Shown here: positions 1 to 64,000 of the stretch, piece after piece | How the letters are laid out: the number at the start of each line of letters is the position of its first letter | Position numbering within the stretch: the stretch's first letter is position 1 | Assembly (NCBI GenBank): GCA_964016885.1 | Contig: OZ024757.1 | Coordinates: 43,090,001-43,154,000, forward strand | DNA: 64,000 nucleotides | Direction: 5' to 3' | Origin: Eledone cirrhosa | Taxonomy: Eukaryota | Position numbers and translations under genes: made by a program | Notes under the pieces: generated by a model | The model's database searches: none | Told to the model about the DNA's origin: nothing | The model's input: only the letters and a program-made list of their open reading frames with translations

Positions 1-187
1 GACCTTGATGCATGCGCAGTACAGTCAGGCGGCCTTGGCGCATGCGCATTACGGACCGGCGGCCTTGGCGCATGCGCAGTACGGTCCGGCGGCCTTAGCG
101 CATGCGCAGTTCGGTACTGCGACCTTGACGCATGCGCAGTACAGTCAGGTGGCCTTGGCGCATGCGCAGTACGGTCCGGCGGCCTTG

Positions 188-243
188 AAAATGGTTAAAC
201 TGCATCATAAATTACTAAAATAACTCAAAATGGCTAAATATGG
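188..243 (+). repeat. AT-rich spacer, short (56-bp) form, at F->R flip
   Basis: AAAATGGTTAAACTGCATCATAAATTACTAAAATAACTCAAAATGGCTAAATATGG lies between ggccttg (F) and actgtactgcgc (R). Confidence 0.95.
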
Positions 244-1049
244 ACTGTACTGCGCATGCGCCAAGGCCACCAGGACGTAGTGCGCATGCGCCAAGGCCAT
301 CGGACCGTAGTGCGCATGCGCCAAGTCTGCCAGACCGTAGTGCGCATGCGCCAAAGCCACCGGACCGTACTGCGCATGTGCCAAGGCCACCGGAACGTAG
401 TGCGCATGCGGCAAGGTCGCCGGACCGTAGTGCGCATGCGCCAAGACCGCCGGACCGTAGTGCGCGTGCGCCAAGGCCGCCAGACCGTAGTGCGCATGCG
501 CCAAGGTCGCCGGGCCGTACTGCGCATGCGCCAAGGCCGCCGGGCTGTAGTGCGCATGCCCCAATGCTGCTAGACCGTAGTGCGCATGCACCAAAGCCAC
601 CGGACCGTAGTGCGCATGCGCCAAGGCTGCCGGACCGTAGTGCGCATGCACCAAGGCCGCCGGACCGTTGTGCGCATGCGCAAAGAACGATGGCCATCTT
701 AGTGAGCATGCGCCAAGGCCGCCGGAACGTACTGCGCATGCGCTAAGGCCGCCCGACCTTACTGCGCATGCGCCAAGGCCACTGGACAGTACTGCGCATG
801 CGTCAAGGCCACCAGAACGTAGTGCGCATGCGCCAAGGCCGCCGTACCGTTGTGCGCATGCGCAAAGACAGCTGGCCCTTAGTGCGCATGCGCCATGGCC
901 GCCGGACCGTAGTGCGCATGCGCCAAGGCTGCCAGACCGTAGTGCGCATGCGCCAAAGCCGCCGGACCGTACTGCGCATGTGCCAAGGCCACCGGAACGT
1001 AGTGCGCATGCGGGAAGGTCGCCGGACCGTAGTGCGCATGCTCCAAGGC

Positions 1050-1080
1050 CGCCGAACCGCATGCGCACAAAGGTCCGGCG
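1050..1080. other. Recurrent R->F inversion junction J1 (gccgaacc|gcatgcgcacaaaggtcc); representative of 20 copies
   Basis: The same junction or its reverse complement occurs near 1058, 3296, 5316, 8928, 10523, 13395, 15377, 20497, 22479, 27269, 30770, 34075, 36157, 37980, 40122, 42603, 45391, 47563, 50196 and 54921. Confidence 0.9.
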
Positions 1081-4000
1081 GCCTTGGCGCATGCGCAGTA
1101 CGGTTCGGCGGCCTTGGCGCATGCGCACTACGGTCTGGCGGCCTTGGCACATGCGCACTACGGTCCGACGGCCTTGGGGCATGCGCAGTAAGATCCGGCG
1201 GTCTTGGAGCATGCGCACTACGGTCTGGCAGCCTTGGCGCATGCGCACTACGGTCCGGCGGCCTTGGCGCATGCGCACTACGTTCCGGCGGCCTTGGCGC
1301 ATGCGCACTACGTTCCGGTGGCCTTTGCGCATGCGCAGTACGGTCCAGCGGCCTTGGCGCATGCGCACAACGGTACGGCGGCCTTGGCGCATGCGCACTA
1401 CGTTCCGGTGGCCTTGACGCATGCGCAGTACTGTCCAGTGGCCTTGGGGCATGCGCACTACAGTCCAGTGGCCTTGGCGCATGCGCAGTAAGGTCCGGCG
1501 GCCATGGCGCATGCGCACTAAGGGCCAGCTGTCTTTGCGCATGCGCACAACGGTACGGCGGCCTTGGCGCATGCGCACTACGTTCTGGTGGCCTTGACGC
1601 ATGCGCAGTACTGTCCAGTGGCCTTGGCGCATGCGCAGTAAGGTCGGGCGGCCTTAGCGCATGCGCAGTACGGTCTGGCGGCCTTGGCACATGCGCACTA
1701 CGGTCCGACGGCCTTGGGGCATGCGCAGTACGATCCGGCGGTCTTGGTGCATGCGCAGTACCGTCCGGTGGCCTTGGCGCATGCGCACTACGGTGCAGCT
1801 GCTTTGGGGCATGCGCAGTACGGTTCGGCGGCCTTAGCGCATGCGCACTACGGTCCGGCGGGCTTGGCACATGCGCAGTATGGTCCGGCGACCTTGACGC
1901 AGGCGCACTACGGTTCGGCGGCTCTGGCGCATGCGCACTGCGGTCCGGCGGTCTTGGCGCATACGCAGTACGGTCCGGCGGCCTTAGCGCATGCGCAGTT
2001 CGGTACTGGGACCTTGACGCATGCGCAGTACAGTCAGGCGGCCTTGGCGCATGCGCACTACGGTCCGGCGGCCTTGGCGCATGCGCAGTATGGTCCGACG
2101 GCCTTGGCGCATGTGCACTATGTATCGGCGGCCTTGGCGCATGCGCACTACGGTTCGGCGGCTTTGGCGCATGCGCACTACGATCCGGCGGCCTTGGCGC
2201 ATGCGCACTACGGTCCGGCAGCCTTGGCGCATGCGCACTACGGTCATGTGGCCTTGGCGCATGCGCACTGCGGCCTTGTCGCATGCGCACTACGGTCCGG
2301 TGGCTTTGGCGCATGCGCACTACGGTCCGGCGTCCTTGGCGCATGTGCAGTACGGTCCGGTGGCCTTGGCGCATGCGCACTACGGTCCAGCTGCTTTGGC
2401 GCATGCGCAGTACGGTTCAGCGGCCTTAGCGCATGCGCACTACGGTCCGGCGGGCTTGGCGCATGCGCAGTATGGTCCGGCGACCTTGACGCATGCGCAC
2501 TACGGTTCGGCGGCTCTGGCGCATGCGCACTGCGGTCCGGCGGCCTTGGCGCATGCGCACTACGTTCCGGTGGCCTTGGCGCATGCGCAGTACGCTCCAG
2601 TGGCCTTGGCGCATGCGCAGTAAGGTCCGGCGGCTTTGGCGCATGCGCACTATGGTCTGTCAGTCTTGGCGCATGCGCACTACGGTCCGGCTGCCTTCGT
2701 GGATGCGCACTACGTTCCGGCGGCCTTGCCGCATGCGCACTACGGTCCGGTGGCTTTGGCGCATGCGCACTACGGTCTGGCAGACTTGGCGCATGCGCAC
2801 TACGGTCCGATGGCCTTGGCGCATGCGCACTACGTCCTGGTGGCCTTGGCGCATGCGCAGTACAGTCCAGTGGCCTTGGCGCATGCGCAGTGAGGTCCGG
2901 CGGCCTTAGCGCATGCGCAGTAAGGTCCGGCGGCCATGGCGTATGCGCACTAAGGGTCAGCGGTCTTTGCGCATGCGCACAACGGTCCGGCGGCCTTGGC
3001 GCATGCACACTACGGCCCGGCGGCCTTGGCGCCTGCGCACTACGGTCCGGCGGCTTTGGTGCATGCGCACTACGGTCTGGCAGCATTGGCGCATGCGCAC
3101 TACGGTCTGGCAGACTTGGCGCATGCGCACTACGGTGCGATGGCCTTGGCGCGTGCGCACTACGTTCTGGTGGCCTTGGCGCATGCACAGTACGGTCCAG
3201 TGGAACGTAGTGCGCATGCGCCAAGGCCGCCGGAACGTAGTGCGCATGCGGGAAGGTCGCCGGACAGTAGTGCGCATGCGCCAAGGCCACCGAACCGCAT
3301 GCGCACAAAGATCCGGCGGCCTTGGCGCATGCGCAGTACGGTTCGGCGGCCTTGGCACATGCGCACTACGGTCTGGCGGCCTTGGCACATGCGCACTACC
3401 ATCCGACGGCCTTGGGGCATGCGCAGTAAGATCCGGCGGCCTTGGAGCATGCGCACTACGGTCTGGCAGCCTTGGCGCATGCGCACTACGGTCCGGCGGC
3501 CTTGGCGCATGCGCACTACGTTCCGGTGGCCTTGGCGCATGCGCAGTACGCTCCAGTGGCCTTGGCGCATGCGCAGTAAGGTCCGGCGGCTTTGGCGCAT
3601 GCGCACTATGGTCTGTCAGTCTTGGCGCATGCGCACTACGGTCCGGCGGCCTTGGCGCATGCGCACTACGTTCCGGCGGCCTTGGCGCATGCGCACTACG
3701 TTCCGGTGGCCTTTGCGCATGCGCAGTACGGTCCAGCGGCCTTGGCGCATGCGCACATCGGTACGGCGGCCTTGGCGCATGCGCACTACGTTCCGGTGGC
3801 CTTGACGCATGCGCAGTACTGTCCAGTGGCCTTGGGGCATGCGCACTACAGTCCAGTGGCCTTGGCGCATGCGCAGTAAGGTCCGGCGGCCATGGCGCAT
3901 GCGCACTAAGGGCCAGCCGTCTTTGCGCATGCGCACAACGGTACGGCGGCCTTGGCGCATGCGCACTACGTTCTGGTGGCCTTGACGCATGCGCAGTACT

Positions 4001-4512
4001 GTCCAGTGGCCTTGGCGCATGCGCAGTAAGGTCCAGCGGCCTTAGCGCATGCGCAGTACGTTCCGGCGGCCTTGGCGCATGCGCACTAAGGGCCATCGTT
4101 CTTTGCGCATGCGCACAACGGTCCGGCGGCCTTGGTGCATGCGCACTACGGTCCGGCAGCCTTGGCGCATGCGCACTACGGTCCGGTGGCTTTGGTGCAT
4201 GCGCACTACGGTCTAGCAGCATTGGGGCATGCGCACTACAGCCCGGCGGCCTTGGCGCATGCGCAGTACGGCCCGGCGACCTTGGCACATGCGCACTACG
4301 GTCTGGCGGTCTTGGCGCATGCATACTACGGTCCGGCGACCTTGCCGCATGCGCACTACTTTCCGGTGGCCATGGCACATGCGCAGTACGGTCCGGTGGC
4401 TTTGGCGCATGCGCACTACGGTCTGGCAGACTTGGCGCATGCGCACTACGGTCCGATGGCCTTGGCGCATGCGCACTACGTCCTGGTGGCCTTGGCGCAT
4501 GCGCAGTACAGT

Positions 4513-4568
4513 CCATATTTAGCCATTTTGAGTTATTTTAGTAATTCATGATGCAGTTTAACCATTTT
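4513..4568 (-). repeat. AT-rich spacer, short (56-bp) form, reverse orientation
   Basis: Reverse complement of 188-243 with one substitution (aattcatg); F upstream, R downstream. Confidence 0.95.
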
Positions 4569-5760
4569 CAAGGCCGCCGGACCGTACTGCGCATGCGCCA
4601 AGGCCGCCTGACTGTACTGCGCATGCGTCAAGGTCGCAGTACCGAACTGCGCATGCGTTAAGGCCGCCGGACCGTACTGAGCATGTGCCAAGGCCGCCGG
4701 ACCGTAGTGCGCATGCGCCAAAGCCGCCGAACCGTACTGCGCATGCGCCAAGGCCGCCGGACCGTAGTGCGCATGCGCCAAGACCGACTGACTGTACTGC
4801 GCATGCGTCAAGGTCCCAGTACCGAACTGCGCATGCGCTAAGGCCGCCGGACCGTACTGCACATGCGCCAAGGCCGCCGGACCGCAGTGCGCATGCGCAA
4901 GAGCCGCCGAACCGTAGTGCGCATGCGTCAAGGTCGCCGAACCATACTGCGCATGCGCCAAGCCCGCCGGACCGTAGTGCGCATGCGCTAAGGCCGCCGA
5001 ACCGTACTGCGCATGCGCCAAAGCAGCTGGACCGTAGTGCGCATGCGCCAAGGCCACGGGACGGTACTGCGCATGCTCCAAGACCGATGGATCGTACTGC
5101 GCATGCCCCAAGGCCGTCGGACAGTAGTGCGCATGTGCCAATGCCGCCAGACCGTAGTGCGCATGCTCCAAGACCGCCGGATCTTACTGCGCATGCCCCA
5201 AGGCCGTCGGACCGTAGTGCGCATGTGCCAAGGCCGCCAGACCGTAGTGCGCATGCGCCAAGGCCGCCGAACCGTACTGCGCATGCGCCAAGGCCACCGG
5301 ACCTTTGTGCGCATGCGGTTCGGCGGCCTTGGCGCATGCGCACTACGGTCCGGCGACCTTCCCGCATGCGCACTACGTTCCGGTGGCCTTGGCACATGCG
5401 CCGTACGGTCCGGCGGCCTTAGCGCATGCGCAGTTCGGTACTGCGACCTTGACGAATGCGCAGTACAGTCAGGTGGCCTTGGCGCATGCGCAGTACGGTC
5501 CGGAGGCCTTAGCGCATGCGCAGTTCGGTACTGCGACCTTGACGCATGCGCAGTAAGTCAGGCGGCCTTGGTGCATGCGCACAACTGTCCGGCGCCCTTG
5601 GCGCATGCGCAGTATGGTCCGACGGCCTTGGCGCATGTGCACTATGTATCGGCGGCCTTGGCGCATGCGCACTACGGTTAGGCGGCTTTGGCGCATGCGC
5701 ACTACGATCAGGCCGTATCGACGCGTGCGCAGTACGGTCTGGCGGTCTTGGCGCATGGGC

Positions 5761-6028
5761 ACGTCATCAAAAAGGACTAACATGGCCGAAATGTCATCAT
5801 GTATGTCTGAAATTACAACAAAGTGGCTAAGACGGCATAATAAATGACTAAAGTGACAATAAAATGCTAAAACCGTATCATAATTGACTAGAATGACTCT
5901 AACACGACTGAAACGTCTAAAATGACTATAAATGGCTCTAAAATGGTTAAACTGCATCATAAATTACTAAAATAACTCAAAATGGCTAAATATGGCAACA
6001 CAAAGGCTTAAAATGGCTAAAAAGTCAT
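5761..6028 (+). repeat. AT-rich spacer, full-length (268-bp) form, at F->R flip
   Basis: acgtcatcaaaaaggactaa...aaaatggctaaaaagtcat; contains the 56-bp core at 5940-5995. Confidence 0.95.
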
Positions 6029-8679
6029 CCGGACCGTACTGCACATGCGTCAAGAACGTCGGACCGTAGTGCGCATGCGCCAAGGCCTCCGAACCGTAGT
6101 GCGCATGCGCCAACGCCGCCGGACCGTAGTGCGCATGCGCCAAGGCCGCCGGACCGTAGTGCGCATGCGCCAAGGCCGCCAGACCATAGTGCGCATGCGC
6201 CAAGGCCGCCGGGCCGTACTGCGCATGCGCCAAGGCCGCCGGACCGTAGTGCGCATGCGCCAATGCTGCCAGACCGTAGTGCGCATGCACCAAAGCTGCC
6301 GGACCGTAGTGCGCATGCGCCAAGGCCGCCGGACCGTTGTGCGCATGCGCCAAGGCCACTGGACCGTACTGTGCATGCGCCAAGGCCACCAGAACGTAGT
6401 GCGCACGCGCCAAGGCCATCGGACCGTAGTGCGCATGCGCCAAGTCTGCCAGACCGTAGTGCGCATGCGCCAATGCTGCCACACCGTAGTGCGCATGCAC
6501 CAAAGCCGCCGGACCGTAGTGCGCAGGCTCCAAGGCCGCCGAGCCGTAGTGTACATGCGCCAAGGCCGCCGGACCGTTGTGCGCATGCGCAAAGACCGCT
6601 GACCCTTAGTGCGCATGCGCCATGGCCGCCGGACCTTACTGCGCATGCACTAAGGCCGCCGGACCTCACTGCGCATGCGCCAAGGCCACTGGACTGTACT
6701 GCGCATGCGCCAAGGCCACCAGGACGTAGTGCGCATGCGCCAAGGCCATCGGACCGTAGTGCGCATGCGCCAAGTCTGCCAGACCGTAGTGCGCATGCGC
6801 CAAAGCCACCGGACCGTACTGCGCATGTGCCAAGGCCACCGGAAAGTAGTGCGCATGCGGCAAGGTCGCCGGACCGTAGTGCGCATGCGCCAAGACCGCC
6901 GGACCGTAGTGCGCGTGCGCCAAGGCCGCCAGACCGTAGTGCGCATGCGCCAAGGTCGCCGGGCCGTACTGCGCATGCGCCAAGGCCGCCGGGCTGTAGT
7001 GCGCATGCTCCAATGCTGCTAGACCGTAGTGCGCATGCACCAAAGCCGCCGGACCGTAGTGCGCATGCGCCAAGGCCGCCGGACCGTAGTGCGCATGCAC
7101 CAAGGCCGCCGGACCGTTGTGCGCATGCGCAAAGAACGATGGCCCTTAGAGCGCATGCGCCAAGGCCGCCGGAACGTACTGCGCATGCGCTAAGGCCGCC
7201 GGACCTTACTGCGCATGCGTCAAGGCCACCGGAACGTAGTGCGCATGCGCCAAGGCCGCCGTACCATTGTGCGCATGCGCAAAGACCACTGGCCCTTAGT
7301 GCGCATGCGCCATGGCCGCCGGACCTTACTGCGCATGCGCCAAGGCCGCCGGACCGTAGTGCGCATGCGCCAATGCTGCCAGACCGTAGTGCGCATGCAC
7401 CAAAGCTGCCGGACCGTAGTGCGCATGCGCCAAGGCCGCCGGACCGTTGTGCGCATGCGCCAAGGCCACTGGACCGTAGTGCGCACGCGCCAAGGCCATC
7501 GGACCGTAGTGCGCATGCGCCAAGTCTGCCAGACCGTAGTGCGCATGCGCTAAAGCCACCGGACCGTACTGCGCATGTGCCAAGGCCACCGGAACGTAGT
7601 GCGCATGCGGCAAGGTCGCCGGACCGTAGTGCGCATGCGCCAAGACCGCCGGACCGTAGTGCGCATGCGCCAAGTCTGCCAGACCGTAGTGCGCATGCGC
7701 CAAAGCCACCGGACCGTAGTGCGCATGCGGCAAGGCCGCCGGAACGTAGTGCGCATCCACGAAGGCAGCCGGACCGTAGTGCGCATGCGCCAAGACTGAC
7801 AGACCATAGTGCGCATGCGCCAAAGCCGCCGGACCTTACTGCGCATGCGCCAAGGCCACTGGAGCGTACTGCGCATGCGCCAAGGCCACCGGAGCGTAGT
7901 GCGCACGCGCCAAGGCCGCCGGACCGCAGTGCGCATGCGCCAGAGCCGCCGAACCGTAGTGCGCATGCGTCAAGGTCGCCGGACCATACTGCGCATGCGC
8001 CAAGCCCGCCGGACCGTAGTGCGCATGCGCTAAGGCCGCTGAACCGTACTGCGCATGCGCCAAAGCAGCTGGACCGTAGTGCGCATGCACCAAGGCCACC
8101 GGACCGTACTGCACATGCGCCAAGGACGCCGGACCGTAGTGCGCATGCGCCAAAGCCACCGGACCGTAGTGCGCATGCGACAAGGCCGCAGTACCGTAGT
8201 GCGCATGCGCCAAGGCCACATGACCGTAGTGCGCATGCGCCAAGGCTGCCGGACCGTAGTGCGCATGCGCCAAGGCCGCCGGACCGTAGTGCGCATGCGC
8301 CAAAGCCGCCGAACCGTAGTGCGCATGCGCCAAGGCCGCCGATACATAGTGCACATGCGCCAAGGCCGTCGGACCATACTGCGCATGCGCCAAGGCCGCC
8401 GGACCGTAGTGCGCATGCGCCAAGGCCGCCTGACTGTACTGCGCATGCGTCAAGGTCCCAGTACCGAACTGCGCATGCGCTAAGGCCGCCGGACCGTACT
8501 GCGCATGCGCCAAGGCCGCCGGACCGCAGTGCGCATGCGCCAGAGCTGCCGAACCGTAGTGCGCCTGCGTCAAGGTCGCCGGACCATACTGCGCATGTGC
8601 CAAGCCCGCCGGACTGTAGTGCGCATGCGCTAAGGCCGCCGAACCGTACTGCGCATGCGCCAAAGCAGCTGCACCGTAG

Positions 8680-11600
8680 TGCGCATGCGCCAAGGCCACC
8701 GGACGGTACTGCGCATGCACCAAGACCGCCGGATCGTACTGCGCATGCCCCAAGGCCGTCGGACCGTAGTGCGCACGTGCCAAAGCCGCCAGACCGTAGT
8801 GCGCATGCTCCAAGGCCGCCGGATCTTACTGCGCATGCCCCAAGGCCGTCGGACAGTAGTGCTCATGCGCCAAGGCCGCCGAACCGTACTGCGCATGCGC
8901 CAAGGCCGCCGGATCTTTGTGCGCATGCGGTTCGGTGGCCTTGGCGCATGCGCACTACTGTCCGGCGACCTTCCCGCATGCGCACTACGTTCCGGCGGCC
9001 TTGGCGCATGCGCACTACGTTCCGGCAGCCTTGGCGCATGCGCACTACGGTCATGTGGCCTTGGCGCATGCGCAGTACTGTCCAGTGGCCTTGGCGCATG
9101 CGCAGTAAGGTCCGGCAGCCTTAGCGCATGCGCACTACGGTCCAGTGGCCTTATCGCATGCGCAGTAAGGTCCGGCGGCCATGGCGCATGCGCACTAAGG
9201 GCCAGCGGTCTTTGCGCATGCGCACAACGGTCCGGCGGCCTTGGCGCCTGCGCACTACGGTCCGGCGGCTTTGGTGCATGCGCACTACGTTCCGGTGGCC
9301 TTGGCGCATGCGCAGTACTGTCCAGTGGCCTTGGCGCATGCGCAGTAAGGTCCGGCAGCCTTAGCGCATGCGCACTACGGTCCAGTGGCCTTATCGCATG
9401 CGCAGTAAGGTCCGGCGGCCATGGCGCATGCGCACTAAGGGCCAGCGGTCTTTGCGCATGCGCACAACGGTCCGGCGGCCTTGGCGCCTGCGCACTACGG
9501 TCCGGCGGCTTTGGTGCATGCGCACTACGTTCCGGTGGCCTTGGCGCATGCGCAGTACTGTCCAGTGGCCTTGGCGCATGCGCAGTAAGGTCCGGCAGCC
9601 TTAGCGCATGCGCAGTACGTTCCGGCGGCCATGGCGCATGCGCACTAAGGGCCAGCGGTCTTTGCGCATGCGCACAATGGTACGGCGTCCTTGGCGCATG
9701 CGCACTACGTTCCGGTGGCCTTGACGCATGCGCAGTACTGTCCAGTGGCCTTGGCGCATGCGCAGTAAGGTCCGGCGGCCTTAGCGCATGCGCAGTACGT
9801 TCCGGCGGCCTTGGCGCATGCGCACTAAGGGCCATCGTTCTTTGCGCACCGTACTGCGCATGCGCCAAGGCCGCCGGAACGTAGTGCGCATGCGCCAAGG
9901 TCGCCTGACTGTACTGCGCATGCATCAAAGTCCCAGTACCGTACTGCGCATGCACCAAGACCGCCGGACCGTAGTGCGCATGCGCCAGAGCCGCCGAACC
10001 GTAGTGCGCATGCGCCAAGGCCGCCAGACCATACTGCGCATGCGCCAAGGCCGCCGGGCCGTAGTGAGCATGCGCCAAAGACGCGGGCCCGTAGTGCGCA
10101 TGCGCCAAGGCCACCTGACTGTACTGCGCATGCGTCAAGGTCGCAGTACTGAACTGCGCATGCGCTAAGGCCGCCGGATCGTAATGCGCATGCGCCAAGG
10201 CCGCCTGACTGTACTGCGCATGCGTCAAGGTCGCAGTACCGAACTGCGCATGCGTTAAGGCCGCCGGACCGTACTGCGCATGCGCCAAGGCCACCGGACG
10301 GTACTGCGCATGCACCAAGACCGCCGGATCGTACTGCGCATGCCCCAAGGCCGTCGGACCGTAGTGCGCACGTGCCAAAGCCGCCAGACCGTAGTGCGCA
10401 TGCTCCAAGTCCGCCGGATCTTACTGCGCATGCCCCAAGGCCGTCGGACAGTAGTGCTCATGCGCCAAGGCCGCCGAACCGTACTGCGCATGCGCCAAGG
10501 CCGCCGGATCTTTGTGCGCATGCGGTTCGGTGGCCTTGGCGCATGCGCACTACTGTCCGGCGACCTTCCCGCATGCGCACTACGTTCCGGCGGCCTTGGC
10601 GCATGCGCACTACGTTCCGGCAGCCTTGGCGCATGCGCACTACGGTCATGTGGCCTTGGCGCATGCGCAGTACTGTCCAGTGGCCTTGGCGCATGCGCAG
10701 TAAGGTCCGGCAGCCTTAGCGCATGCGCACTACGGTCCAGTGGCCTTATCGCATGCGCAGTAAGGTCCGGCGGCCATGGCGCATGCGCACTAAGGGCCAG
10801 CGGTCTTTGCGCATGCGCACAACGGTCCGGCGGCCTTGGCGCCTGCGCACTACGGTCCGGCGGCTTTGGTGCATGCGCACTACGTTCCGGTGGCCTTGGC
10901 GCATGCGCAGTACTGTCCAGTGGCCTTGGCGCATGCGCAGTAAGGTCCGGCAGCCTTAGCGCATGCGCACTACGGTCCAGTGGCCTTATCGCATGCGCAG
11001 TAAGGTCCGGCGGCCATGGCGCATGCGCACTAAGGGCCAGCGGTCTTTGCGCATGCGCACAACGGTCCGGCGGCCTTGGCGCCTGCGCACTACGGTCCGG
11101 CGGCTTTGGTGCATGCGCACTACGTTCCGGTGGCCTTGGCGCATGCGCAGTACTGTCCAGTGGCCTTGGCGCATGCGCAGTAAGGTCCGGCAGCCTTAGC
11201 GCATGCGCAGTACGTTCCGGCGGCCATGGCGCATGCGCACTAAGGGCCAGCGGTCTTTGCGCATGCGCACAATGGTACGGCGTCCTTGGCGCATGCGCAC
11301 TACGTTCCGGTGGCCTTGACGCATGCGCAGTACTGTCCAGTGGCCTTGGCGCATGCGCAGTAAGGTCCGGCGGCCTTAGCGCATGCGCAGTACGTTCCGG
11401 CGGCCTTGGCGCATGCGCACTAAGGGCCATCGTTCTTTGCGCACCGTACTGCGCATGCGCCAAGGCCGCCGGAACGTAGTGCGCATGCGCCAAGGTCGCC
11501 TGACTGTACTGCGCATGCATCAAAGTCCCAGTACCGTACTGCGCATGCACCAAGACCGCCGGACCGTAGTGCGCATGCGCCAGAGCCGCCGAACCGTAGT

Positions 11601-11885
11601 GCGCATGCGCCAAGGCCGCCGGACCATACTGCGCATGCGCCAAGGCCGCCGGGCCGTAGTGAGCATGCGCCAAAGACGCGGGCCCGTAGTGCGCATGCGC
11701 CAAGGCCACCTGACTGTACTGCGCATGCGTCAAGGTCGCAGTACTGAACTGCGCATGCGCTAAGGCCGCCGGATCGTAATGCGCATGCGCCAAGGCCGCC
11801 TGACTGTACTGCGCATGCGTCAAGGTCGCAGTACCGAACTGCGCATGCGTTAAGGCCGCCGGACCGTACTGCGCATGCGCCAAGG
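8680..11885 (+). repeat. Tandem duplication, unit 1595 bp, each unit containing two inversion junctions
   Basis: ORF pairs offset by exactly 1595 (8863/10458, 8917/10512, 9128/10723, 9788/11383); private variants gtgctcatgc, ttatcgcatg and gtaatgcgc are repeated. Confidence 0.9.
9830..9860. other. Recurrent spacer-less F->R junction J2 (catcgttctttgcgca|ccgtactgcgc); 5 copies
   Basis: Seen near 9848 and 11443, and as reverse complement near 32722, 41294 and 51981. Confidence 0.88.
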
Positions 11886-17800: not shown

Positions 17801-17942
17801 CCGACGGCCTTGGCGCATGTGCACTATGTATCGGCGGCCTTGGCGCATGCGCACTACGGTTAGGCGGCTTTGGCGCATGCGCACTACGATCAGGCCGTCT
17901 CGGCGCGTGCGCAGTACGGTCTGGCGGTCTTGGCGCATGGGC

Positions 17943-18210
17943 ACGTCATCAAAAAGGACTAACATGGCCGAAATGTCATCATGTATGTCTGAAATTACAA
18001 CAAAATGGCTAAGACGGCATAATAAATGACTAAAGTGACAATAAAATGCTAAAACCGTATCATAATTGACTAGAATGACTCTAACACGACTGAAACGTCT
18101 AAAATGACTATAAATGGCTCTAAAATGGTTAAACTGCATCATAAATTTCTAAAATAACTCAAAATGGCTAAATATGGCAACATAAAGGCTTAAAATGGCT
18201 AAAAAGTCAT
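17943..18210 (+). repeat. AT-rich spacer, full-length (268 bp)
   Basis: Near-identical to 5761-6028; F->R flip. Confidence 0.95.
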
Positions 18211-39228: not shown

Positions 39229-39284
39229 CCATATTTAGCCATTTTGAGTTATTTTAGTAATTTATGATGCAGTTTAACCATTTT
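39229..39284 (-). repeat. AT-rich spacer, short (56 bp), reverse
   Basis: Same sequence as 35264-35319. Confidence 0.95.
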
Positions 39285-43441: not shown

Positions 43442-43497
43442 AAAATGGTTAAACTGCATCATAAATTACTAAAATAACTCAAAATGGCTAAATATGG
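43442..43497 (+). repeat. AT-rich spacer, short (56 bp)
   Basis: Mirror of 39229-39284 about the axis at ~41363. Confidence 0.95.
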
Positions 43498-46229: not shown

Positions 46230-46285
46230 AAAATGGTTAAACTGCATCATAAATTACTAAAATAACTCAAAATGGCTAAATATGG
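46230..46285 (+). repeat. AT-rich spacer, short (56 bp)
   Basis: Copy of 43442-43497 at offset 2788. Confidence 0.95.
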
Positions 46286-48098: not shown

Positions 48099-48333
48099 AC
48101 GTCATCAAAAAGGACTAACATGGCCGAAATGTCATCATGTATGTCTGAAATTACAACAAAATGGCTAAGACGGCATAATAAATGACTAAAGTGACAATAA
48201 AATGCTAAAACCGTATCATAATTGACTAGAATGACTCTAACACGACTGAAACGTCTAAAATGACTATAAATGGCTCTAAAATGGTTAAACTGCATCATAA
48301 ATTACTAAAATAACTCAAAATGGCTAAATATGG
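48099..48333 (+). repeat. AT-rich spacer, medium (235 bp)
   Basis: Mirror of 37211-37445. Confidence 0.95.
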
Positions 48334-53956: not shown

Positions 53957-54224
53957 ACGTCATCAAAAAGGACTAACATGGCCGAAATGTCATCATGTAT
54001 GTCTGAAATTACAACAAAATGGCTAAGACGGCATAATAAATGCCTAAAGTGACAATAAAATGCTAAAACCGTATCATAATTGACTAGAATGACTCTAACA
54101 CGACTGAAACGTCTAAAATGACTATAAATGGCTCTAAAATGGTTAAACTGCATCATAAATTTCTAAAATAACTCAAAATGGCTAAATATGGCAACATAAA
54201 GGCTTAAAATGGCTAAAAAGTCAT
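53957..54224 (+). repeat. AT-rich spacer, full-length (268 bp)
   Basis: Shares the aaatttct variant with the 17943 and 25045 copies. Confidence 0.95.
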
Positions 54225-55759
54225 CCGGACCGTACTGCACATGCGACAAGGACTTCGGACCGTCGTGCGCATGCGCCAAGGCCTCCGAACCGTAGTGCGC
54301 ATGCGCCAACGCCGCCGGACCGTAGTGCGCATGCGCCAAGGCCGCCGGACCGTAGTGCGCATGCGCGAAGGCCGCCAGACCGTAGTGCACATGCGCCAAG
54401 GCCGCCGGGCCGTACTGCGCATGCGCCAAGGCCGCCGGACCGTAGTGCGCATGCGCCAATGCTGCCAGACCGTAGTGCGCATGCACCAAAGCTGCCGGAC
54501 CGTAGTGCGCATGCGCCAAGGCCGCCGGACCGTTGTGCGCATGCGCCAAGGCCACTGGACCGTAGTGCGCACGCGCCAATGCCATCGGACCGTAGTGCGC
54601 ATGCGCCAAGTCTGCCAGACCGTAGTACGAATGCGCTAAAGCCACCGGACCGTACTGCGCATGTGCCAAGGCCACCGGAACGTAGTGCGCATGCGGCAAG
54701 GTCGCCGGACCGTAGTGCGCATGCGCCAAGACCGCCGGAGCGTAGTGTGCATGCGCCAATGCTGCCAGACCGTAGTGCGCATGCGCCAAGGCTGCCAGAC
54801 CGTAGTGCGCATGCGCCAAAGCCGCCGGACCGTACTGCACATGTGCCAAGGCCACCGGAACGTAGTGCGCATGCGGGAAGGTCGCCGGACCGTAGTGCGC
54901 ATGCGCCAAGGCCGCCGAACCGCATGCGCACAAAGGTCCGGCAGCCTTGGCGCATGCGCAGTACGGTTCGGCGGCCTTGGCGCATGCGCACTACGGTCTG
55001 GCGGCCTTGGCACATGCGCACTACGGTCCGACGGCCTTGGGGCATGTGCAGTAAGATCCGGCGGTCTTGGAGCATGCGCACTACGGTCTGGCGGCCTTGG
55101 CACATGCGCACTACTGTCCGACGGCCTTGGGGCATGCGCAGTACGATCCGGCGGTCTTGGATCATGCGCAGTACCGTCCCGTGGCCTTGGCGCATGCGCA
55201 CTACGGTCCAGCTGCTTTGGCGCATGCGCAGTACGGTTCGGCGGCCTTAGCGCATGCGCACTACGGTCCGGAGGGCTTGGCGCATGCGCAGTATGGTCCG
55301 GCGACCTTGACGCAGGCGCACTACGGTTCGGCGGCTCTGGCGCATGCGCACTGCGGTCCGGCGGCCTTGGCGCATGCGCAGTACGGTCCGGCGGCCTTAG
55401 CGCATGCGCAGTCCGGTACTGGGACCTTGACGCATGCGCAGTACAGTCAGTCGGTCTTGGCGCATGCGCACTACGGTCCGGCGGCCTTGGCGCATGCGCA
55501 GTACGGTTCGGCGGCTTTGGCGCATGCGCACTACGGTCCGGCGGCCTTGGCACATGCGCAGTACGGTCCGGCGGCCTTAACGCATGCGTAGTTCGGTACT
55601 GCGACCTTGACGCATGCGCAGTACAGTCAGGCGGCCTTGGCGCATGCGCAGTACGGTCCGGCGGCCTTAGCGCATGCGCAGTTCGGTACTGCGACCTTGA
55701 CGCATGCGCAGTACAGTAAGGTGGCCTTGGCGCATGCGCAGTACGGTCCGGCGGCCTTG

Positions 55760-55815
55760 AAAATGGTTAAACTGCATCATAAATTACTAAAATAACTCAA
55801 AATGGCTAAATATGG
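55760..55815 (+). repeat. AT-rich spacer, short (56 bp)
   Basis: ggccttg|aaaatggtt...tatgg|actgtac. Confidence 0.95.
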
Positions 55816-57822
55816 ACTGTACTGCGCATGCGCCAAGTCCACCAGGACGTAGTGCGCATGCGCCAAGGCCATCGGACCGTAGTGCGCATGCGCCAAGTCT
55901 GCCAGACCGTAGTGCGCATGCGCCAAAGCCACCGAACCGTACTGCGCATGTGCCAAGGCCACCGGAACGTAGTGCGCATGCGGCAAGGTCGCCGGACCGT
56001 AGTGCGCATGCGCCAAGACCGCCGGACCGTAGTGCGCGTGCGCCAAGGCCGCCAGACCGTAGTGCGCATGCGCCAAGGTCGCCGGGCCGTACTGCGCATG
56101 CGCCAAGGCCGCCGGGCTGTAGTGCGCATGCCCCAATGCTGCTAGACCGTAGTGCGCATGCACCAAAGCCACCGGACCGTAGTGCGCATGCGCCAAGGCT
56201 GCCGGACCGTACTGCGCATGCGCCAAGGCCGCCGGACCGTAGTGCGCATGCGCCAAGGCCGCCTGACTGTACTGCGCATGCATCAAAGTCCCAGTACCGT
56301 ACTGCACATGCACCAAGACCGCCGGACCGTAGTGCGCATGCGCCAGAGCCGCCGAACCGTAGTGCGCATGCGCCAAGGCCGCCGGACCATACTGCGCATG
56401 CGCCAAGGCCGCCGGGCCGTAGTGCGCATGCGCCAAAGACGCGGGCCCGTAGTGCGCATGCGCCAAGGCCACCTGACTGTACTGCGCATGCGTCAAGGTC
56501 GCAGTACTGAACTGCGCATGCGCTAAGGCCGCCGGACCGTAATGTGCATGCGCCAAGGCCGCCTGACTGTACTGCGCATGCGTCAAGGTCGCAGTACCGA
56601 ACTGCGCATGCGTTAAGGCCGGCGGCCTTGGCGCATGCGCACTACGTTCCGGTGGCCTTGACGCATGCGCAGTACTGTCCAGTGGCCTTGGCGCATGCGC
56701 AGTAAGGTCCGGCGGCCTTAGCGCATGCGCAGTACGTTGCGGCGGCCTTGGCGCATGCGCACTAAGGGCCATCGTTCTTTGCGCATGCGCACAACGGTCC
56801 GGCGGCCTTGGTGCATGCGCACTACGGTCCGGCAGCCTTGGCGCATGCGCACTACGGTCCGGCGGCTTTGGTGCATGCGCACTACGGTCTAGCAGCATTG
56901 GGGCATGCGCACTACAGCCCGGCGGCCTTGGCGCATGCGCAGTACGGCCCGGCGACCTTGGCGCATGCGCACTACGGTCTGGCGGCCTTGGCGCACGCGC
57001 ACTACGGTCCGGCGGTCTTGGCGCATGCGCACTACGGTCCGGCGACCTTGTCGCATGCGCACTACGTCCTGGTGGCCTTGGCGCATGCGCAGTACAGTCC
57101 AGTGGCCTTGGCGCCTGCGCAGTAAGATCCGGCGGCCATGGCGCATGCGCACTAAGGGCCAGCGGTCTTTGCGCATGCGCAAAATGGTCCGGCGGCCTTG
57201 CCGCATGCACACTACGGCCCGGCGGCCTTGGCGCCTGCGCACTACGGTCCGGCGGCTTTGGTGCATGCGCACTACGGTCTGGCAGCATTGGCGCATGCGC
57301 ACTACGGTCCGGCGGTCTTGGCGCATGCGCACTACGGTCCGGCGACCTTGCCGCATGCGCACTACATTCCGGTGGCCTTGGCACATGCGCAGTACGGTCC
57401 GGTGGCTTTAGCGCATGCGCACTACGGTCTGGCAGACTTGGCGCATGCGCACTACGGTCTGATGGCCTTGGCGCGTGCGCACTACGGTCCGATGGCCTTG
57501 GCGCGTGCGCACTACGGTCCAGTGGCCTTGGCGCATGCGCACAACGGTCCGGTGGCCTTGGCGCATGCGCACTACGGTCCGGCAGCTTTGGTGCATGCGC
57601 ACTACGGTCTGGCAACATTGGCGCATGCGCACTACGGTCCGGCGGCCTTGGCGCATGCGCAGTACGGCCCGGCGGCCTTGGCGCATGCGCACTACGGTCT
57701 GGCGGCCTTGGCGCATGCGCACTACGTTCCGGCGGCGTTGGCGCATGCGCACTACGGTTCGGAGGCCTTGGCGCATGCGCACTACGGTCCGACGTCCTTG
57801 ACGCATGTGCAGTACGGTCCGG

Positions 57823-58090
57823 ATGAATTTTTAGCCATTTTAAGCCTTTATGTTGCCATATTTAGCCATTTTGAGTTATTTTAGTAATTTATGATGCAGT
57901 TTAACCATTTTAGAGCCATTTATAGTCATTTTAGACGTTTCAGTCGTGTTAGAGTCATTCTAGTCAATTATGATACGGTTTTAGCATTTTATTGTCACTT
58001 TAGTCATTTATTATGCCGTCTTAGTCATTTTGTTGTAATTTCAGACATACATGATGACATTTCGGCCATGTTAGTCCTTTTTGATGAAGT
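57823..58090 (-). repeat. AT-rich spacer, full-length (268 bp), reverse
   Basis: atgaatttttagcc...ttgatgaagt. Confidence 0.95.
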
Positions 58091-58619
58091 GCCCATGCGC
58101 CAAGACCGCCAGACCGTACTGCGCATGCGCCAAGGGCGCCGGACCGTAGTGCGCATGCGCCAAGGCCGCCTGACTGTACTGCGCATGCGTCAAGGTCGCA
58201 GTACCGAACTGCGCATGCGCTAAGGCCGCCGAACCGCACTGCGCATGCGCCAAGGCCACCTGACTGTACTGCGTATGCGTCAAGGTCGCAGTACCGAACT
58301 GCGCATGCGCTAAGGCCGCCGGACCGTACTGCGCATGCGCCAAGGCCGCCGGACCGTAGTGCGCATGCGCCAAGGCCGCCTGACTGTACTGCGCATGCAT
58401 CAAGGTCCCAGTACCGTACTGCGCATGCACCAAGGCCACCAGGACGTAGTGCGCATGCGCCAAGGCCATCGGACCGTAGTGCGCATGCGCCAAGTCTGCC
58501 AGACCGTAGTGCGCATGCGCCAAAGCCACCGGACCGTACTGCGCATGTGCCAAGGCCACCGGAACGCAGTGCGCATGCGGCAAGGTCGCTGGACCGTAGT
58601 GCGCATGCGCCAAGACCGA

Positions 58620-61460
58620 CGGTCCGGTGGCTTTGGCGCATGCGCACTACGGTCCGGCGTCCTTGGCGCATGTGCAGTACGGTCCGGTGACCTTGGCGCA
58701 TGCGCACTACGGTCCAGCTGCTTTGGCGCATGCGCAGTACGGTTCAGCGGCCTTAGCGCATGCGCACTACGGTCCGGCGGGCTTGGCGCATGTGCAGTAT
58801 GGTCCGGCGACCTTGACGCATGCGCACTACGGTTCGGCGGCTCTGGCGCATGCGCACTGCGGTCCGGCGGCCCTGGCGCATGCGCACTACGTTCCGGTGG
58901 CCTTGGCGCATGCGCAGTACGCTCCAGTGGCCTTGGCGCATGCGCAGTAAGGTCCGGCGGCTTTGGCGCATGCGCACTATGGTCTGTCAGTCTTGGCGCA
59001 TGCGCACTACGGTCCGGCTGCCTTCGTGGATGCGCACTACGTTCCGGCGGTCTTGCCGCATGCGCATTACGGTCCGGTGGCTTTGGCGCATGCGCACTAC
59101 GGTCTGGCAGACTTGGCGCATGCGCACTACGGTCCGATGGCCTTGGCGCATGCGCACTACGGTCTGGCAGCATTGGCGCATGCGCACTACGGTCCGGCGG
59201 TCTTGGCGCATGCGCACTACGGTCCGGCGACCTTGCCGCATGCGCACTACGTTCCGGTGGCCTTGGCACATGCGCAGTACGGTCCGGTGGCTTTAGCGCA
59301 TGCGCACTACGGTCTGGCAGACTTGGCGCATGCGCACTACGGTCCGATGGCCTTGGCGCGTGCGCACTACGGTCCAGTGGCCTTGGCGCATGCGCACAAC
59401 GGTCCGGCGGCCTTGGCGCATGCGCACTACGGTCCGGCAGCTTTGGTGCATGCGCACTACGGTCTGGCAGCATTGGCGCATGCGCACTACGGTCCGGCGG
59501 CCTTGGCGCATGCGCAGTAAGGTCCGGCGGCCATGGCGCATGCGCACTAAGGGCCAGCGGTCTTTGCGCATGCGCACAATGGTACGGCGGCCTTGGCGCA
59601 TGCGCACTACGTTCCGGTGGCCTTGACGCATGCGCAGTACTGTCCAGTGGCCTTGGCGCATGCGCAGTAAGGTCCGGCGGCCTTAGCGCATGCGCAGTAC
59701 GTTCCGGCGGCCTTGGCGCATGCGCACTAAGGGCCATCGTTCTTTGCGCATGCGCACAACGGTCCGGCGGCCTTGGTGCATGCGCACTACGGTCCGGCGG
59801 CCTTGGCGCATGCGCACTACGGTCCGGCGGCTTTGGTGCATGCGCACTACGGTCTAGCAGCATTGGAGCATGCGCACTACAGCCCGGCGGCCTTGGCGCA
59901 TGCGCAGTACGGCCCGGCGACCTTGGCGCATGCGCACTACGGTCTGGCGGCCTTGGCGCACGCGCACTACGGTCCGGCGGTCTTGGCGCATGCGCACTAC
60001 GGTCCGGCGACCTTGCCGCATGCGCACTACGTTCCGGTGGCCTTGGCACATGCGCAGTACGGTCCGGTGGCTTTGGCGCATGCGCACTACGGTCTGGCAG
60101 ACTTGGCGCATGCACACTACGGTCCGATGGCCTTGGCGCATGCGCACTACGTCCTGGTGGCCTTGGCGCATGCGCAGTACAGTCCAGTGGCCTTGGTGCA
60201 TGCGCAGTGAGGTCCGGCGGCCTTAGCGCATGCGCAGTAAGGTCCGGCGGCCATGGCGCATGCGCACTAAGGGTCAGCGGTCTTTGCGCATGCGCACAAC
60301 GGTCCGGCGGCCTTGGCGCATGTACACTACGGCCCGGCGGCCTTGGCGCCTGCGCACTACGGTCCGGCGGCTTTGGTGCATGCGCACTACGGTGTGGCAG
60401 CATTGGCGCATGCGCACTACGGTCTGGCAGACTTGGCGCATGCGCACTACGGTCCGATGGCCTTGGCGCGTGCGCACTACGTTCTGGTGGCCTTGGCGCA
60501 TGCACAGTACGGTCCAGTGGCCTTGGCGCATGCGCACAACGGTCCGGCGGCCTTGGCGCATGCGCACTACGGTCCGTCAGCTTTGGTGCATGCGCACTAC
60601 GGTCTGGCAGCATTGGCGCATGCGCACTACGGTCCGGCGGCCTTGGCGCATGCGCAGTACGGCCCGGTGGCCTTGGCGCATGCTCACTACGGTCTGGCGG
60701 CCTTGGCGCATGCGCACTACGGTCCGGCGGCCTTGGCGCATGCGCACTACGGTCCGGCGGCGTTGGCGCATGCGCACTACGGTTCGGAGGCCTTGGCGCA
60801 TGCGCACTACGGTCCGACGTTCTTGACGCATGTGCAGTACGGTCCGGATGACTTTTTAGCCATTTTAAGCCTTTGTGTTGCCATATTTAGCCATTTTGAG
60901 TTATTTTAGTAATTTATGATGCAGTTTAACCATTTTAGAGCCATTTATAGTCATTTTAGACGTTTCAGTCGTGTTAGAGTCATTCTAGTCAATTATGATA
61001 CGGTTTTAGCATTTTATTGTCACTTTAGTCATTTATTATGCCGTCTTAGCCACTTTGTTGTAATTTCAGACATACATGATGACATTTCGGCCATGTTAGT
61101 CCTTTTTGATGACGTGCCCATGCGCCAAGACCGCCAGACCGTACTGCGCACGCGTCGATACGGCCTGATCGTAGTGCGCATGCGCCAAAGCCGCCTAACC
61201 GTAGTGCGCATGCGCCAAGGCCGCCGATACATAGTGCACATGCGCCAAGGCCGTCGGACCATACTGCGCATGCGCCAAGGGCGCCGGACAGTTGTGCGCA
61301 TGCACCAAGGCCGCCTGACTTACTGCGCATGCGTCAAGGTCGCAGTACCGAACTGCGCATGCGCTAAGGCCTCCGGACCGTACTGCGCATGCGCCAAGGC
61401 CACCTGACTGTACAGCGCATGCGTCAAGGTCGCAGTACCGAACTGCGTATGCGCTAAGGC
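58620..61460 (-). repeat. Inverted copy of ~5410-8170
   Basis: Mirror ORFs 5469..5960(-)/60916..61407(+) and 5967..6563(-)/60313..60909(+) have sum 66876; private variants shared (cagtaagtca deletion, ccgtatcgacg). Confidence 0.87.
60848..61115 (-). repeat. AT-rich spacer, full-length (268 bp), reverse
   Basis: Reverse complement of 5761-6028, including its private variants (aaagtggct, caacacaaagg). Confidence 0.95.
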
Positions 61461-63082
61461 CGCCGGACCGTACTGCGCATGCGCCAAGGCCGCCGGACCG
61501 TAGTGCGCATGCGCCAAGGCCGCCTGACTGTACTGCGCATGCATCAAAGTCCCAGTACCGTACTGCACATGCACCAAGACCGCCGGACCGTAGTGCGCAT
61601 GCGCCAGAGCCGCCGAACCGTAGTGCGCATGCGCCAAGGCCGCCGGACCATACTGCGCATGCGCCAAGGCCGCCGGGCCGTAGTGCGCATGCGCCAAAGA
61701 CGCGGGCCCGTAGTGCGCATGCGCCAAGGCCACCTGACTGTACTGCGCATGCGTCAAGGTCGCAGTACTGAACTGCGCATGCGCTAAGGCCGCCGGACCG
61801 TAATGTGCATGCGCCAAGGCCGCCTGACTGTACTGCGCATGCGTCAAGGTCGCAGTACCGAACTGCGCATGCGTTAAGGCCGGCGGCCTTGGCGCATGCG
61901 CACTACGTTCCGGTGGCCTTGACGCATGCGCAGTACTGTCCAGTGGCCTTGGCGCATGCGCAGTAAGGTCCGGCGGCCTTAGCGCATGCGCAGTACGTTC
62001 CGGCGGCCTTGGCGCATGCGCACTAAGGGCCATCGTTCTTTGCGCATGCGCACAACGGTCCGGCGGCCTTGGTGCATGCGCACTACGGTCCGGCAGCCTT
62101 GGCGCATGCGCACTACGGTCCGGCGGCTTTCGTGCATGCGCACTACGGTCTAGCAGCATTGGGGCATGCGCACTACAGCCCGGCGGCCTTGGCGCATGCG
62201 CAGTACGGCCCGGCGACCTTGGCGCATGCGCACTACGGTCTGGCGGCCTTGGCGCACGCGCACTACGGTCCGGCGGTCTTGGCGCATGCGCACTACGGTC
62301 CGGCGACCTTGTCGCATGCGCACTACGTCCTGGTGGCCTTGGCGCATGCGCAGTACAGTCCAGTGGCCTTGGCGCCTGCGCAGTAAGATTCGGCGGCCAT
62401 GGCGCATGCGCACTAAGGGCCAGCGGTCTTTGCGCATGCGCAAAATGGTCCGGCGGCCTTGCCGCATGCACACTACGGCCCGGCGGCCTTGGCGCCTGCG
62501 CACTACGGTCCGGCGGCTTTGGTTCATGCGCACTACGGTCTGGCAGCATTGGCGCATGCGCACTACGGTCCGGCGGTCTTGGCGCATGCGCACTACGGTC
62601 CGGCGACCTTGCCGCATGCGCACTACATTCCGGTGGCCTTGGCACATGCGCAGTACGGTCCGGTGGCTTTAGCGCATGCGCACTACGGTCTGGCAGACTT
62701 GGCGCATGCGCACTACGGTCTGATGGCCTTGGCGCGTGCGCACTACGGTCCGATGGCCTTGGCGCGTGCGCACTACGGTCCAGTGGCCTTGGCGCATGCG
62801 CACAACGGTCCGGTGGCCTTGGCGCATGCGCACTACGGTCCGGCAGCTTTGGTGCATGCGCACTACGGTCTGGCAACATTGGCGCATGCGCACTACGGTC
62901 CGCGGCCTTGGCGCATGCGCAGTACGGCCCGGCGGCCTTGGCGCATGCGCACTACGGTCTGGCGGCCTTGGCGCATGCGCACTACGTTCCGGCGGCGTTG
63001 GCGCATGCGCACTACGGTTCGGAGGCCTTGGCGCATGCGCACTACGGTCCGACGTCCTTGACGCATGTGCAGTACGGTCCGG

Positions 63083-63350
63083 ATGAATTTTTAGCCATTT
63101 TAAGCCTTTATGTTGCCATATTTAGCCATTTTGAGTTATTTTAGTAATTTATGATGCAGTTTAACCATTTTAGAGCCATTTATAGTCATTTTAGACGTTT
63201 CAGTCGTGTTAGAGTCATTCTAGTCAATTATGATACGGTTTTAGCATTTTATTGTCACTTTAGTCATTTATTATGCCGTCTTAGCCATTTTGTTGTAATT
63301 TCAGACATACATGATGACATTTCGGCCATGTTAGTCCTTTTTGATGAAGT
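63083..63350 (-). repeat. AT-rich spacer, full-length (268 bp), reverse
   Basis: Copy of 57823-58090 at offset 5260. Confidence 0.95.
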
Positions 63351-64000
63351 GCCCATGCGCCAAGACCGCCAGACCGTACTGCGCATGCGCCAAGGGCGCC
63401 GGACCGTAGTGCGCATGCGCCAAGGCCGCCTGACTGTACTGCGCATGCGTCAAGGTCGCAGTACCGAACTGCGCATGCGCTAAGGCCGCCGAACCGCATT
63501 GCGCATGCGCCAAGGCCACCTGACTGTACTGCGCATGCGTCAAGGTCGCAGTACCGAACTGCGCATGCGCTAAGGCCGCCGGACCGTACTGCGCATGCGC
63601 CAAGGCCGCCGGACCGTAGTGCGCATGCGCCAAGGCCGCCTGACTGTACTGCGCATGCATCAAGGTCCCAGTACCGTACTGCGCATGCACCAAGGCCACC
63701 AGGACGTAGTGCGCATGCGCCAAGGCCATCGGACCGTAGTGCGCATGCGCCAAGTCTGCCAGACCGTAGTGCGCATGCGCCAAAGCCACCGGACCGTACT
63801 GCGCATGTGCCAAGGCCACCGGAACGTAGTGCGCATGCGGCAAGGTCGCTGGACCGTAGTGCGCATGCGCCAAGACCGACGGTCCGGTGGCTTTGGCGCA
63901 TGCGCACTACGGTCCGGCGTCCTTGGCGCATGTGCAGTACGGTCCGGTGACCTTGGCGCATGCGCACTACGGTCCAGCTGCTTTGGCGCATGCGCAGTAC

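Follow-up and report, generated by a model that had tools for sequence, protein, structure and literature searches.

We analysed a stretch of 64,000 nucleotides of Eledone cirrhosa (the window; C18:43,090,001-43,154,000, contig OZ024757.1, of a 3.0-Gb assembly), which is the inner part of a larger satellite array built from a GC-rich 30-bp monomer. The array spans C18:42,694,595-43,365,807, i.e., 671 kb, and holds 19,869 monomers with a pairwise likeness of 83%. The contig's telomere (TTAGGG) follows about 0.55 Mb beyond the array end, i.e., the array is subtelomeric. The monomer is CpG-rich and carries a 10-bp palindromic core, an NRF1-type motif. Genome-wide, 3,002/3,004 exact 23-mer matches and 14,307/14,698 24-mer matches with at most two mismatches lie inside the array (391 of the latter outside), that is, it is a single-locus satellite. 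Both array ends, which we read directly, consist of a second, AT-rich satellite in the same orientation; neither terminal inverted repeats (TIRs) nor target-site duplications (TSDs) were seen there. An Rfam search with window positions 4000-7000 gave 0 matches.

The window was decomposed into monomers by dynamic programming using its commonest 30-mer. This yields 53 arms of alternating orientation (F and R) separated by 52 flips, with a mean arm length of 1,186 bp (range 91-2,908). All 26 R>F flips are direct. Most of them (20/26) use one asymmetric junction, termed J1, which occurs in both orientations at positions 1054, 3292, 5317, 8929, 10524, 13391, 15378, 20493, 22480, 27265, 30771, 34071, 36158, 37976, 40123, 42599, 45387, 47564, 50192 and 54917 (feature span 1054..54921, no single strand). 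The remaining six R>F flips are of four types (33144; 53160; 56612 and 61873; 58618 and 63878; span 33144..63881). The 26 F>R flips comprise 8 direct ones of three types (9848, 11443, 32719, 41291 and 51978; 14547 and 21649; 3198; span 3198..51982) as well as 18 with an AT-rich spacer.

The spacers, 10 in plus and 8 in minus orientation, fall into few length classes. The 54-bp class, a remnant of an AT satellite with 10-bp period, is found at 188..241 (+), 4515..4568 (-), 35266..35319 (-), 39231..39284 (-), 43442..43495 (+), 46230..46283 (+) and 55760..55813 (+). The 229-bp class is located at 29497..29730 (+), 33308..33536 (-), 37213..37441 (-) and 48103..48331 (+), the 257-bp class at 5765..6021 (+), 17947..18203 (+), 25049..25305 (+), 53961..54217 (+) and 60855..61111 (-), and a variant of 262-267 bp at 57823..58089 (-) and 63083..63349 (-). 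These numbers agree with the initial annotation of the window, which had reported 52 flips, a strand switch about every 1.2 kb, J1 at 20 of 26 R>F flips, and all 18 spacers at F>R flips whichever way the spacer itself points. The higher-order unit it had derived from them, J1 - F arm - AT loop - R arm - J1, holds in part: inverted arms do alternate and few junctions are reused, but by hand count J1 flanks both sides of only 11/18 spacers, and the left junction of the first spacer, located outside the window, is not J1.

The same layout is found throughout the array. Here, we count 438 flips (219 R>F and 219 F>R), i.e., one per about 1.5 kb. All 219 R>F flips are direct and 145/219 are J1; the F>R flips divide into 158 with spacer and 61 direct ones. 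A fold within the AT spacer, denoted T|A, is present in 43 copies, and the transitions between GC 30-mer and AT satellite fall into classes of 95, 78, 61, 39 and 30 copies. The initial annotation had held that spacers at R>F flips or inside co-oriented blocks elsewhere in the array would speak against its polarity rule. Among the 161 internal spacers, 158 are at F>R flips, 0 at R>F flips, and 3 inside co-oriented blocks, all of the latter in the outer layers of the array.

Next, we considered whether the flips are real. Support for junctions comes from short reads of three studies with two organism labels; runs X1 and X4 possibly stem from the source sample, while X3 (with the other organism label) and X9 belong to other studies. 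Runs X5-X8, with a small share or none, were left out, and the runs listed included no RNA, which speaks neither for nor against expression. Contigs from short reads of X1 and X3 contain both the F-arm/spacer and the spacer/R-arm junctions, as do hundreds to more than 1,000 raw reads of run X9. For J1, contigs of X1 and X4 match with 0 mismatches; each of them has fewer than 31 letters on one side and thus falls short of the 31-letter bridging rule. In run X3, an opposite-strand joint is found at J1. The reliance on short reads, the narrow J1 contigs and a 61-kb block repeated at 99.97% identity, which could be a misassembly, leave some room for assembly or sequencing artefacts. On the other hand, asymmetric junctions are found in identical form up to 145 times, in either orientation, and occur in the runs of three studies, such that we regard an artefactual origin of the flips as hardly credible and take the flips of the window as real.

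The polarity rule itself, i.e., the confinement of spacers to F>R flips, is a geometric consequence that is invariant under inversion. A piece x in F-x-R reverse-complements to F-x'-R, so anything once placed at an F>R flip stays there through duplications and inversions that end in arms. In a toy simulation of homology-only exchange, 0 polarity violations occurred in 5/5 runs; a single run shrank to 6 junctions, and in the 4 that grew, orientation combinations were roughly equal. In the array, the respective combinations of spacer and next J1 orientation are observed 34/22/31/21 times. We thus rejected polarity as a statistical rule. Since the spacers form one lineage, the 18/18 at F>R flips reflect one founding event and not 18.

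This lineage is visible in the layering of the array. Spacers at both edges measure 1.1-1.46 kb and are AT satellite folded on itself, those of the second layer about 580 bp, and those of the centre about 258, 229 and about 53 bp. Each of the three central classes aligns at 92-96% to a part of the long edge spacer, and these parts are nested; the 257-bp class, e.g., corresponds to positions 1064-1333 of a 1,333-bp edge spacer at 92%. With a cut-off of 88%, the ~580-bp class matches the edge spacer over a 222-bp arm only, and several long edge spacers give no match to it. Spacers are 82-95% alike at the edges and 99-100% in the centre, and the repeat AT(-)|AT(+)-R|F is still present at both array edges. 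The AT satellite with its 10-bp period also stands alone at many loci: the GC core is found in 0/12 fetched stretches, within which the AT satellite by itself flips strand in 7/11 patches. The long spacer of the array edges is a patch of this separate, free-standing satellite in folded form. One stand-alone AT region at C18:41,881,700-41,888,000 shows 11 strand switches in about 6 kb and no GC monomers.

We also evaluated the view of the initial annotation that the inverted-repeat cassette is the unit of amplification, which we do not retain. The tandem duplications listed (n=10) have periods of 3.6-72 kb and 2-50 flips per unit, orientations are scrambled, and duplication ends are not enriched at junctions: among the 432 ends of long direct repeats, a fraction of 0.095 lies within 60 bp of a block boundary, compared to 0.112 for random points. 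Two duplications involve the window. The one at 12285..26506 (+) has a period of 7,102 bp, 99.99% identity and 4 flips per unit, and ends inside arms, the closest flips being 843 and 762 bp away. The other starts at 54440 and extends past the window (54440..64000, +; C18:43,144,440-43,277,677), with a period of 72,213 bp and 61 kb at 99.97%; it must have arisen very recently, unless it is a misassembly. Another large repeat links 42.81-42.88 Mb of C18 with 42.96-43.03 Mb at an offset of about 145 kb. For a given junction pair, arm lengths mostly differ by whole monomers (e.g., 33/35 in one phase); for one listed pair, they are scattered.

Arms are not mirror copies of each other either. Mirror identity of the arms across junctions is 0.837-0.851 (0.829 for direct F>R flips) with a control of 0.849. 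The 156 spacer flips average 0.837 and none reaches 0.95, a value attained by only 3/396 junctions tested. The edge folds show 72-78% (T|A) and 83-88% (R|F). That is, likeness is not above control, edges included, and mirror-copy arms were rejected. The claim that the cassettes are hairpin-capable finds support in silico, where predicted folds of two cassettes contain 414/518 and 606/722 long-range pairs compared to 143/455 and 252/621 in co-oriented controls. Such long-range folding would be expected of any inverted arms that are 83% alike.

How new flips arise is suggested by the junctions themselves. Because the monomer holds a 10-bp palindrome, any two monomers are also inverted repeats of each other. 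Accordingly placed junctions are overrepresented: 7/31 direct junction types sit on the core dyad where about 1 is expected (p=6e-5), although the 31 types are not fully independent, given that two of the core-dyad types are the ends of one 30-bp (one-monomer) inversion and several types derive from J1. New flips thus favour the monomer's palindromic dyad. J1 sits 7 bp off the core-dyad register, which is compatible with a core flip followed by a small deletion. Fold-back template switching, which the initial annotation had offered as a way of spreading cassettes, is therefore plausible for new flips at palindromes, but not with the cassette as amplified unit.

To place the monomer, we compared it with related repeats of the genome. 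Helitrons typically start with TC after an A and end in a 3' hairpin and CTRR. A high-copy Helitron, for whose helicase piece about 1,466 first-look candidates exist in the genome, carries a homologous repeat: of the 20 copies examined, which are the best BLAST matches and not a random sample, 14 hold 3-40 monomers of 27 bp at a fixed internal position upstream of the helicase, 13 of them in one orientation. The 5' end a|TC is present in 6/6 copies where the end motif was found. One copy shows PF14214 (E 1.7e-31) as well as PF05970 (E 9.7e-38), and another PF05970. The Helitron consensus and the C18 monomer agree at 23/27 positions and differ by a 3-bp insertion. We consider it likely from these alignments that the 30-bp monomer descends from the Helitron's internal 27-bp repeat. 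A Helitron origin of the spacer was dropped, as the edge spacer had no BLAST match among the top 30 listed for the 20 Helitron stretches. The Helitron copy at C4:193.39 Mb carries its 27-bp array, together with the flank downstream of it, in the orientation opposite to that of the other 13 copies.

The 27-bp sister subfamily also forms fold-back patches elsewhere. We fetched 12 such loci among the first 100 places listed by a loose search and read them by eye. None has matching ends; either their borders are ragged and run into other simple repeats, or the loci lie in Helitron flanks. Two of them hold a more diverged one-directional array beside Helitron sequence. In 9 loci, we counted 51 direct R>F flips, 44 F>R flips with spacer, 2 direct F>R flips and 0 R>F flips with spacer, along with 8 co-oriented gaps. 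The F>R spacer is AT-only and unrelated to that of C18, and many of the direct R>F flips pass through the palindromic core (read by eye). A sister-type array at C6:41.01 Mb, which contains two flips, is bordered on the left by Helitron flank sequence and is a plausible intermediate. Chains of about 1-kb fold-back cassettes were seen at C2:229.95, C3:150.93, C8:30.88, C8:31.03 and C14:23.92 Mb. They consist of 27-bp arms, two short GC modules and self-folding AAATT/AATTT repeats, and several directly adjoin arrays, TTAGGG-like or degenerate and telomere-like, at a large distance from the contig ends. At C4:101,468,800-101,479,200, 27-bp arrays are separated by a GCAC/GCAATCAC simple repeat that is self-folding as well. 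Strand switching seems to be a shared trait of several repeat families in this genome.

Given these results, we favour, with a probability of roughly two in three, the following account: the array is a single-locus subtelomeric macro-dyad satellite with a probably Helitron-derived monomer. Most of its flips would go back, as copies, to few founding junctions, with unequal exchange as the likely means of multiplication and inversions between opposite arms as that of shuffling. The observed high-copy Helitron with its homologous 27-bp array would be the source. A 30-bp derivative would then have come to adjoin a patch of the separate AT satellite, and a fold-back of the AT patch and another of the GC array (J1) would have produced AT(-)|AT(+)-R|F. 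Subsequently, co-oriented arms may have exchanged sequence and thereby duplicated blocks of 3.6-72 kb, and exchange involving two opposite arms may have flipped the junction that lies between them; the products of both are observed. Exchange in arms cannot move a spacer to an R>F flip, so polarity is kept. Deletions would have trimmed the spacer from the ~1.3-1.45 kb of the edges to ~580 bp and then to the 258, 229 and 53 bp of the centre, a nested series present in the array, and would thereby have removed the spacer's own fold. New flips would have been added preferentially at the palindromic dyad, where the enrichment is observed, possibly by template switching. The layout is thus explicable without function.

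Two rivals concern the origin of this architecture. An inverted-dimer circle, i.e., a dog-bone as in origin-dependent inverted-repeat amplification (ODIRA) or another extrachromosomal circular DNA (eccDNA), could have been copied in rolling-circle or rolling-hairpin mode, possibly with help of the Helitron's RepHel protein, and have given rise to most of the array, which recombination would only have edited later. An inverted dimer has one head-to-head and one tail-to-tail junction, as found in the edge layer (PMC4689423), and eccDNA was invoked by the Tribolium authors (PMC12581902, PMC13081366). The left array edge is a run of about 3-kb cassettes, C18:42.72-42.86 Mb is mostly in one orientation (J1- 18, S+ 24), and the small fold-back patches elsewhere need a means of dispersal. 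Since units are very unequal, duplication ends lie within arms, orientations in the centre follow no order, and even the edge arms are no mirror copies of each other, we find this scenario unlikely as a whole; it fits the seeding step but not the main amplifier. Even less probable, and largely refuted, is the origin proposed initially, namely that the cassette is a non-autonomous foldback element or miniature inverted-repeat transposable element (MITE) amplified in tandem as a unit. The two-domain arms of the edge cassettes (outer GC and inner AT repeats), the tandem ~1-kb inverted cassettes of the 27-bp subfamily at several loci, and the fact that foldback elements seed satellites elsewhere (Tetris, PMC4079207; Rehavkus, PMC12581902) are in its favour. 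This is outweighed by the array ends, which are co-oriented AT satellite without visible TIR or TSD, by the ragged ends or Helitron flanks of the 12 other loci, by arms that are not mirror copies, by a spacer that is a free-standing satellite, and by a monomer that matches a Helitron-internal repeat.

Several observations also weigh against the account we favour, beside the mutual dependence of the junction types and the selection of Helitron copies by BLAST score mentioned above. The direction from Helitron to satellite is taken from an unrooted comparison, and the Helitron could have captured the repeat instead; in the fetched flanks of the C18 array, a common interspersed piece is present but no array-specific Helitron module. 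Mirror identity of the founding folds is incomplete, so that their origin by fold-back replication is presumed. Furthermore, the 27-bp patches share the polarity of C18 despite an unrelated spacer. Geometry explains polarity within each lineage but not the agreement of the two, for which chance gives about 1 in 2 if they are independent. Finally, transitions at core CpGs (0.08-0.11) are less frequent than at other CpGs of the arrays (0.16-0.24), while Helitron copies are flat at 0.26-0.32, a contrast that hints weakly at constraint. The latter touches on a third rival, according to which the layout is kept by selection, with the array serving as the chromosome's centromere or as a structural or protein-binding domain via its cruciform-prone dyads and ~13,000 NRF1-type sites. 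The array's layered build, with spacers 82-95% alike at the edges and 99-100% in the centre, would suit this, as the layering resembles that of centromeres. The 11-bp core is matched 13,396 times in the array, an NRF1-family gene is present on C15, and flip density persists over 671 kb. The core motif corresponds to a motif named NRF1 in PMC8096230, and a comparable role was proposed for the Tribolium arrays (PMC13081366). Yet a single locus is no general centromeric satellite, recent copying explains the conserved junctions equally well, variants that share ancestry make the CpG contrast no independent count, and the AT satellite alone also flips often (7/11 patches in the fetched stretches). 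We therefore consider selection improbable as the explanation of the layout; it would concern persistence and can be compatible with our preferred account of copied founding junctions. A bolder version sees a Helitron-born NRF1-type palindrome as a self-inverting satellite seed and the C18 array as a putative protein-bound selected domain, possibly a young chromosome-specific centromere. Here, the palindrome would make monomers direct and inverted repeats at once and in this way lead to fold-back patches genome-wide as well as to the macro-dyad array of C18. We give this little credence.

Related architectures are known. Two intermingled satellites in macro-dyads are described for Tribolium freemani (TfSat01/TfSat03, PMC12581902) and Tribolium madens (TmSat1/TmSat2, PMC13081366), with conserved inversion sites, transition zones and 'cassettes' in both studies. 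The novelty of architecture suggested by the initial annotation is thereby lost. The C18 array shares with them inverted subarrays of tandem monomers that are kb-scale and differ in length, the reuse of few inversion sites (J1 in 145/219 R>F flips, 43 copies of the T|A fold), and two intermingled satellites with conserved transitions, the AT part being reduced in the C18 centre. In contrast, the Tribolium macro-dyads dominate large regions on all chromosomes while the C18 array is confined to one locus (3,002/3,004 exact matches). The Tribolium type is also (peri)centromeric; the C18 array ends about 0.55 Mb from a telomere. C18 further differs by its 30-bp GC- and CpG-rich monomer, one flip per ~1.5 kb, a minor satellite cut to 53-258 bp, a traceable Helitron relative, a flip-prone palindromic core, a 3-Gb genome and TTAGGG telomeres. 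That is, the C18 array works like Tribolium macro-dyads without the all-chromosome feature. According to PMC13081366 (March 2026), macro-dyads are documented exclusively in Tribolium, and their conserved junctions are possibly functional or reflect how arrays spread. Our literature search, with most subscription papers, Dfam and Repbase outside its scope, listed no description of this satellite family or of macro-dyads outside Tribolium. A Caenorhabditis T2T preprint, queried with four terms, yielded nothing relevant either. Novel aspects are the taxon, the density of flips, the link to a Helitron and a history that can still be seen; the architecture itself was already known.

The array also resembles three other systems in part. 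Repeats borne by rolling-circle transposons, i.e., the central repeats of the Helitron/Helentron-type element Cg_HINE in oyster (PMC7492417) and Helitron-related repeats in the Drosophila virilis group (cited in PMC12581902), likewise are short tandem arrays related to a satellite; here, pieces of RepHel coding sequence remain in the carrier, and the derived arrays consist of inverted arms joined in chains. Foldback-type elements are a second case. Arms made of short tandem repeats are reportedly found in Drosophila FB, sea-urchin TU and Xenopus Xstir. As in Tetris/TIR-220 (PMC4079207), inverted arms of short tandem repeats surround a middle piece; the C18 array differs by lacking visible TIR ends or an 8-10-bp TSD, by arms that are not mirror copies, and by a middle that is another satellite. 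Third, the array recalls inverted gene amplification. Salmonella tandem inversion duplications are said to yield inverted amplicons of alternating orientation. In ODIRA in yeast, orientation alternates across a head-to-head and a tail-to-tail junction, one of each, as in the C18 edge layer, and the palindromic junctions are rearranged later (PMC4689423). It differs by few copies of gene amplicons with near-identical arms, compared to 438 flips in satellite DNA with arms that are not mirror-identical. Mirror identity around the C18 junctions may have eroded since founding.

With regard to meaning, the C18 array shows the macro-dyad layout in an animal distant from Tribolium. It also shows that copying of few founding events can suffice to give conserved junctions and a fixed polarity, which provides a null model for functional claims. 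The assembly further combines three grades, i.e., a Helitron-internal repeat, small fold-back patches and a giant array, with a layered series of spacer deletions, such that origin and turnover become testable with long reads. If the self-inverting seed were true, it would give a macro-dyad system outside Tribolium whose entire history can be followed within one genome. About 13,000 NRF1-type sites at one locus allow for a straightforward test as a transcription-factor sink.

Some minor observations concern the surroundings and a distant copy of the array. An unrelated minisatellite of ~41-bp period adjoins the left array end (C18:42,693,600-42,694,594). About 190 kb left of the array, C18:42,500,001-42,500,700 contains tandem coding repeats on the minus strand (read by eye), which we take to be C2H2 zinc-finger-like, a label unconfirmed by domain scan. 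At C6:31,463,597-31,463,770, about 6 monomers that are 98.8% identical to the C18 array are joined to a copy of a retroelement resembling a long interspersed nuclear element (LINE). Compared with its inverted neighbour, this copy shows 58 substitutions, among them 37 A>G and 17 C>T. The pattern looks like ADAR-edited RNA copied back into DNA, which hints at transcription of the C18 array.

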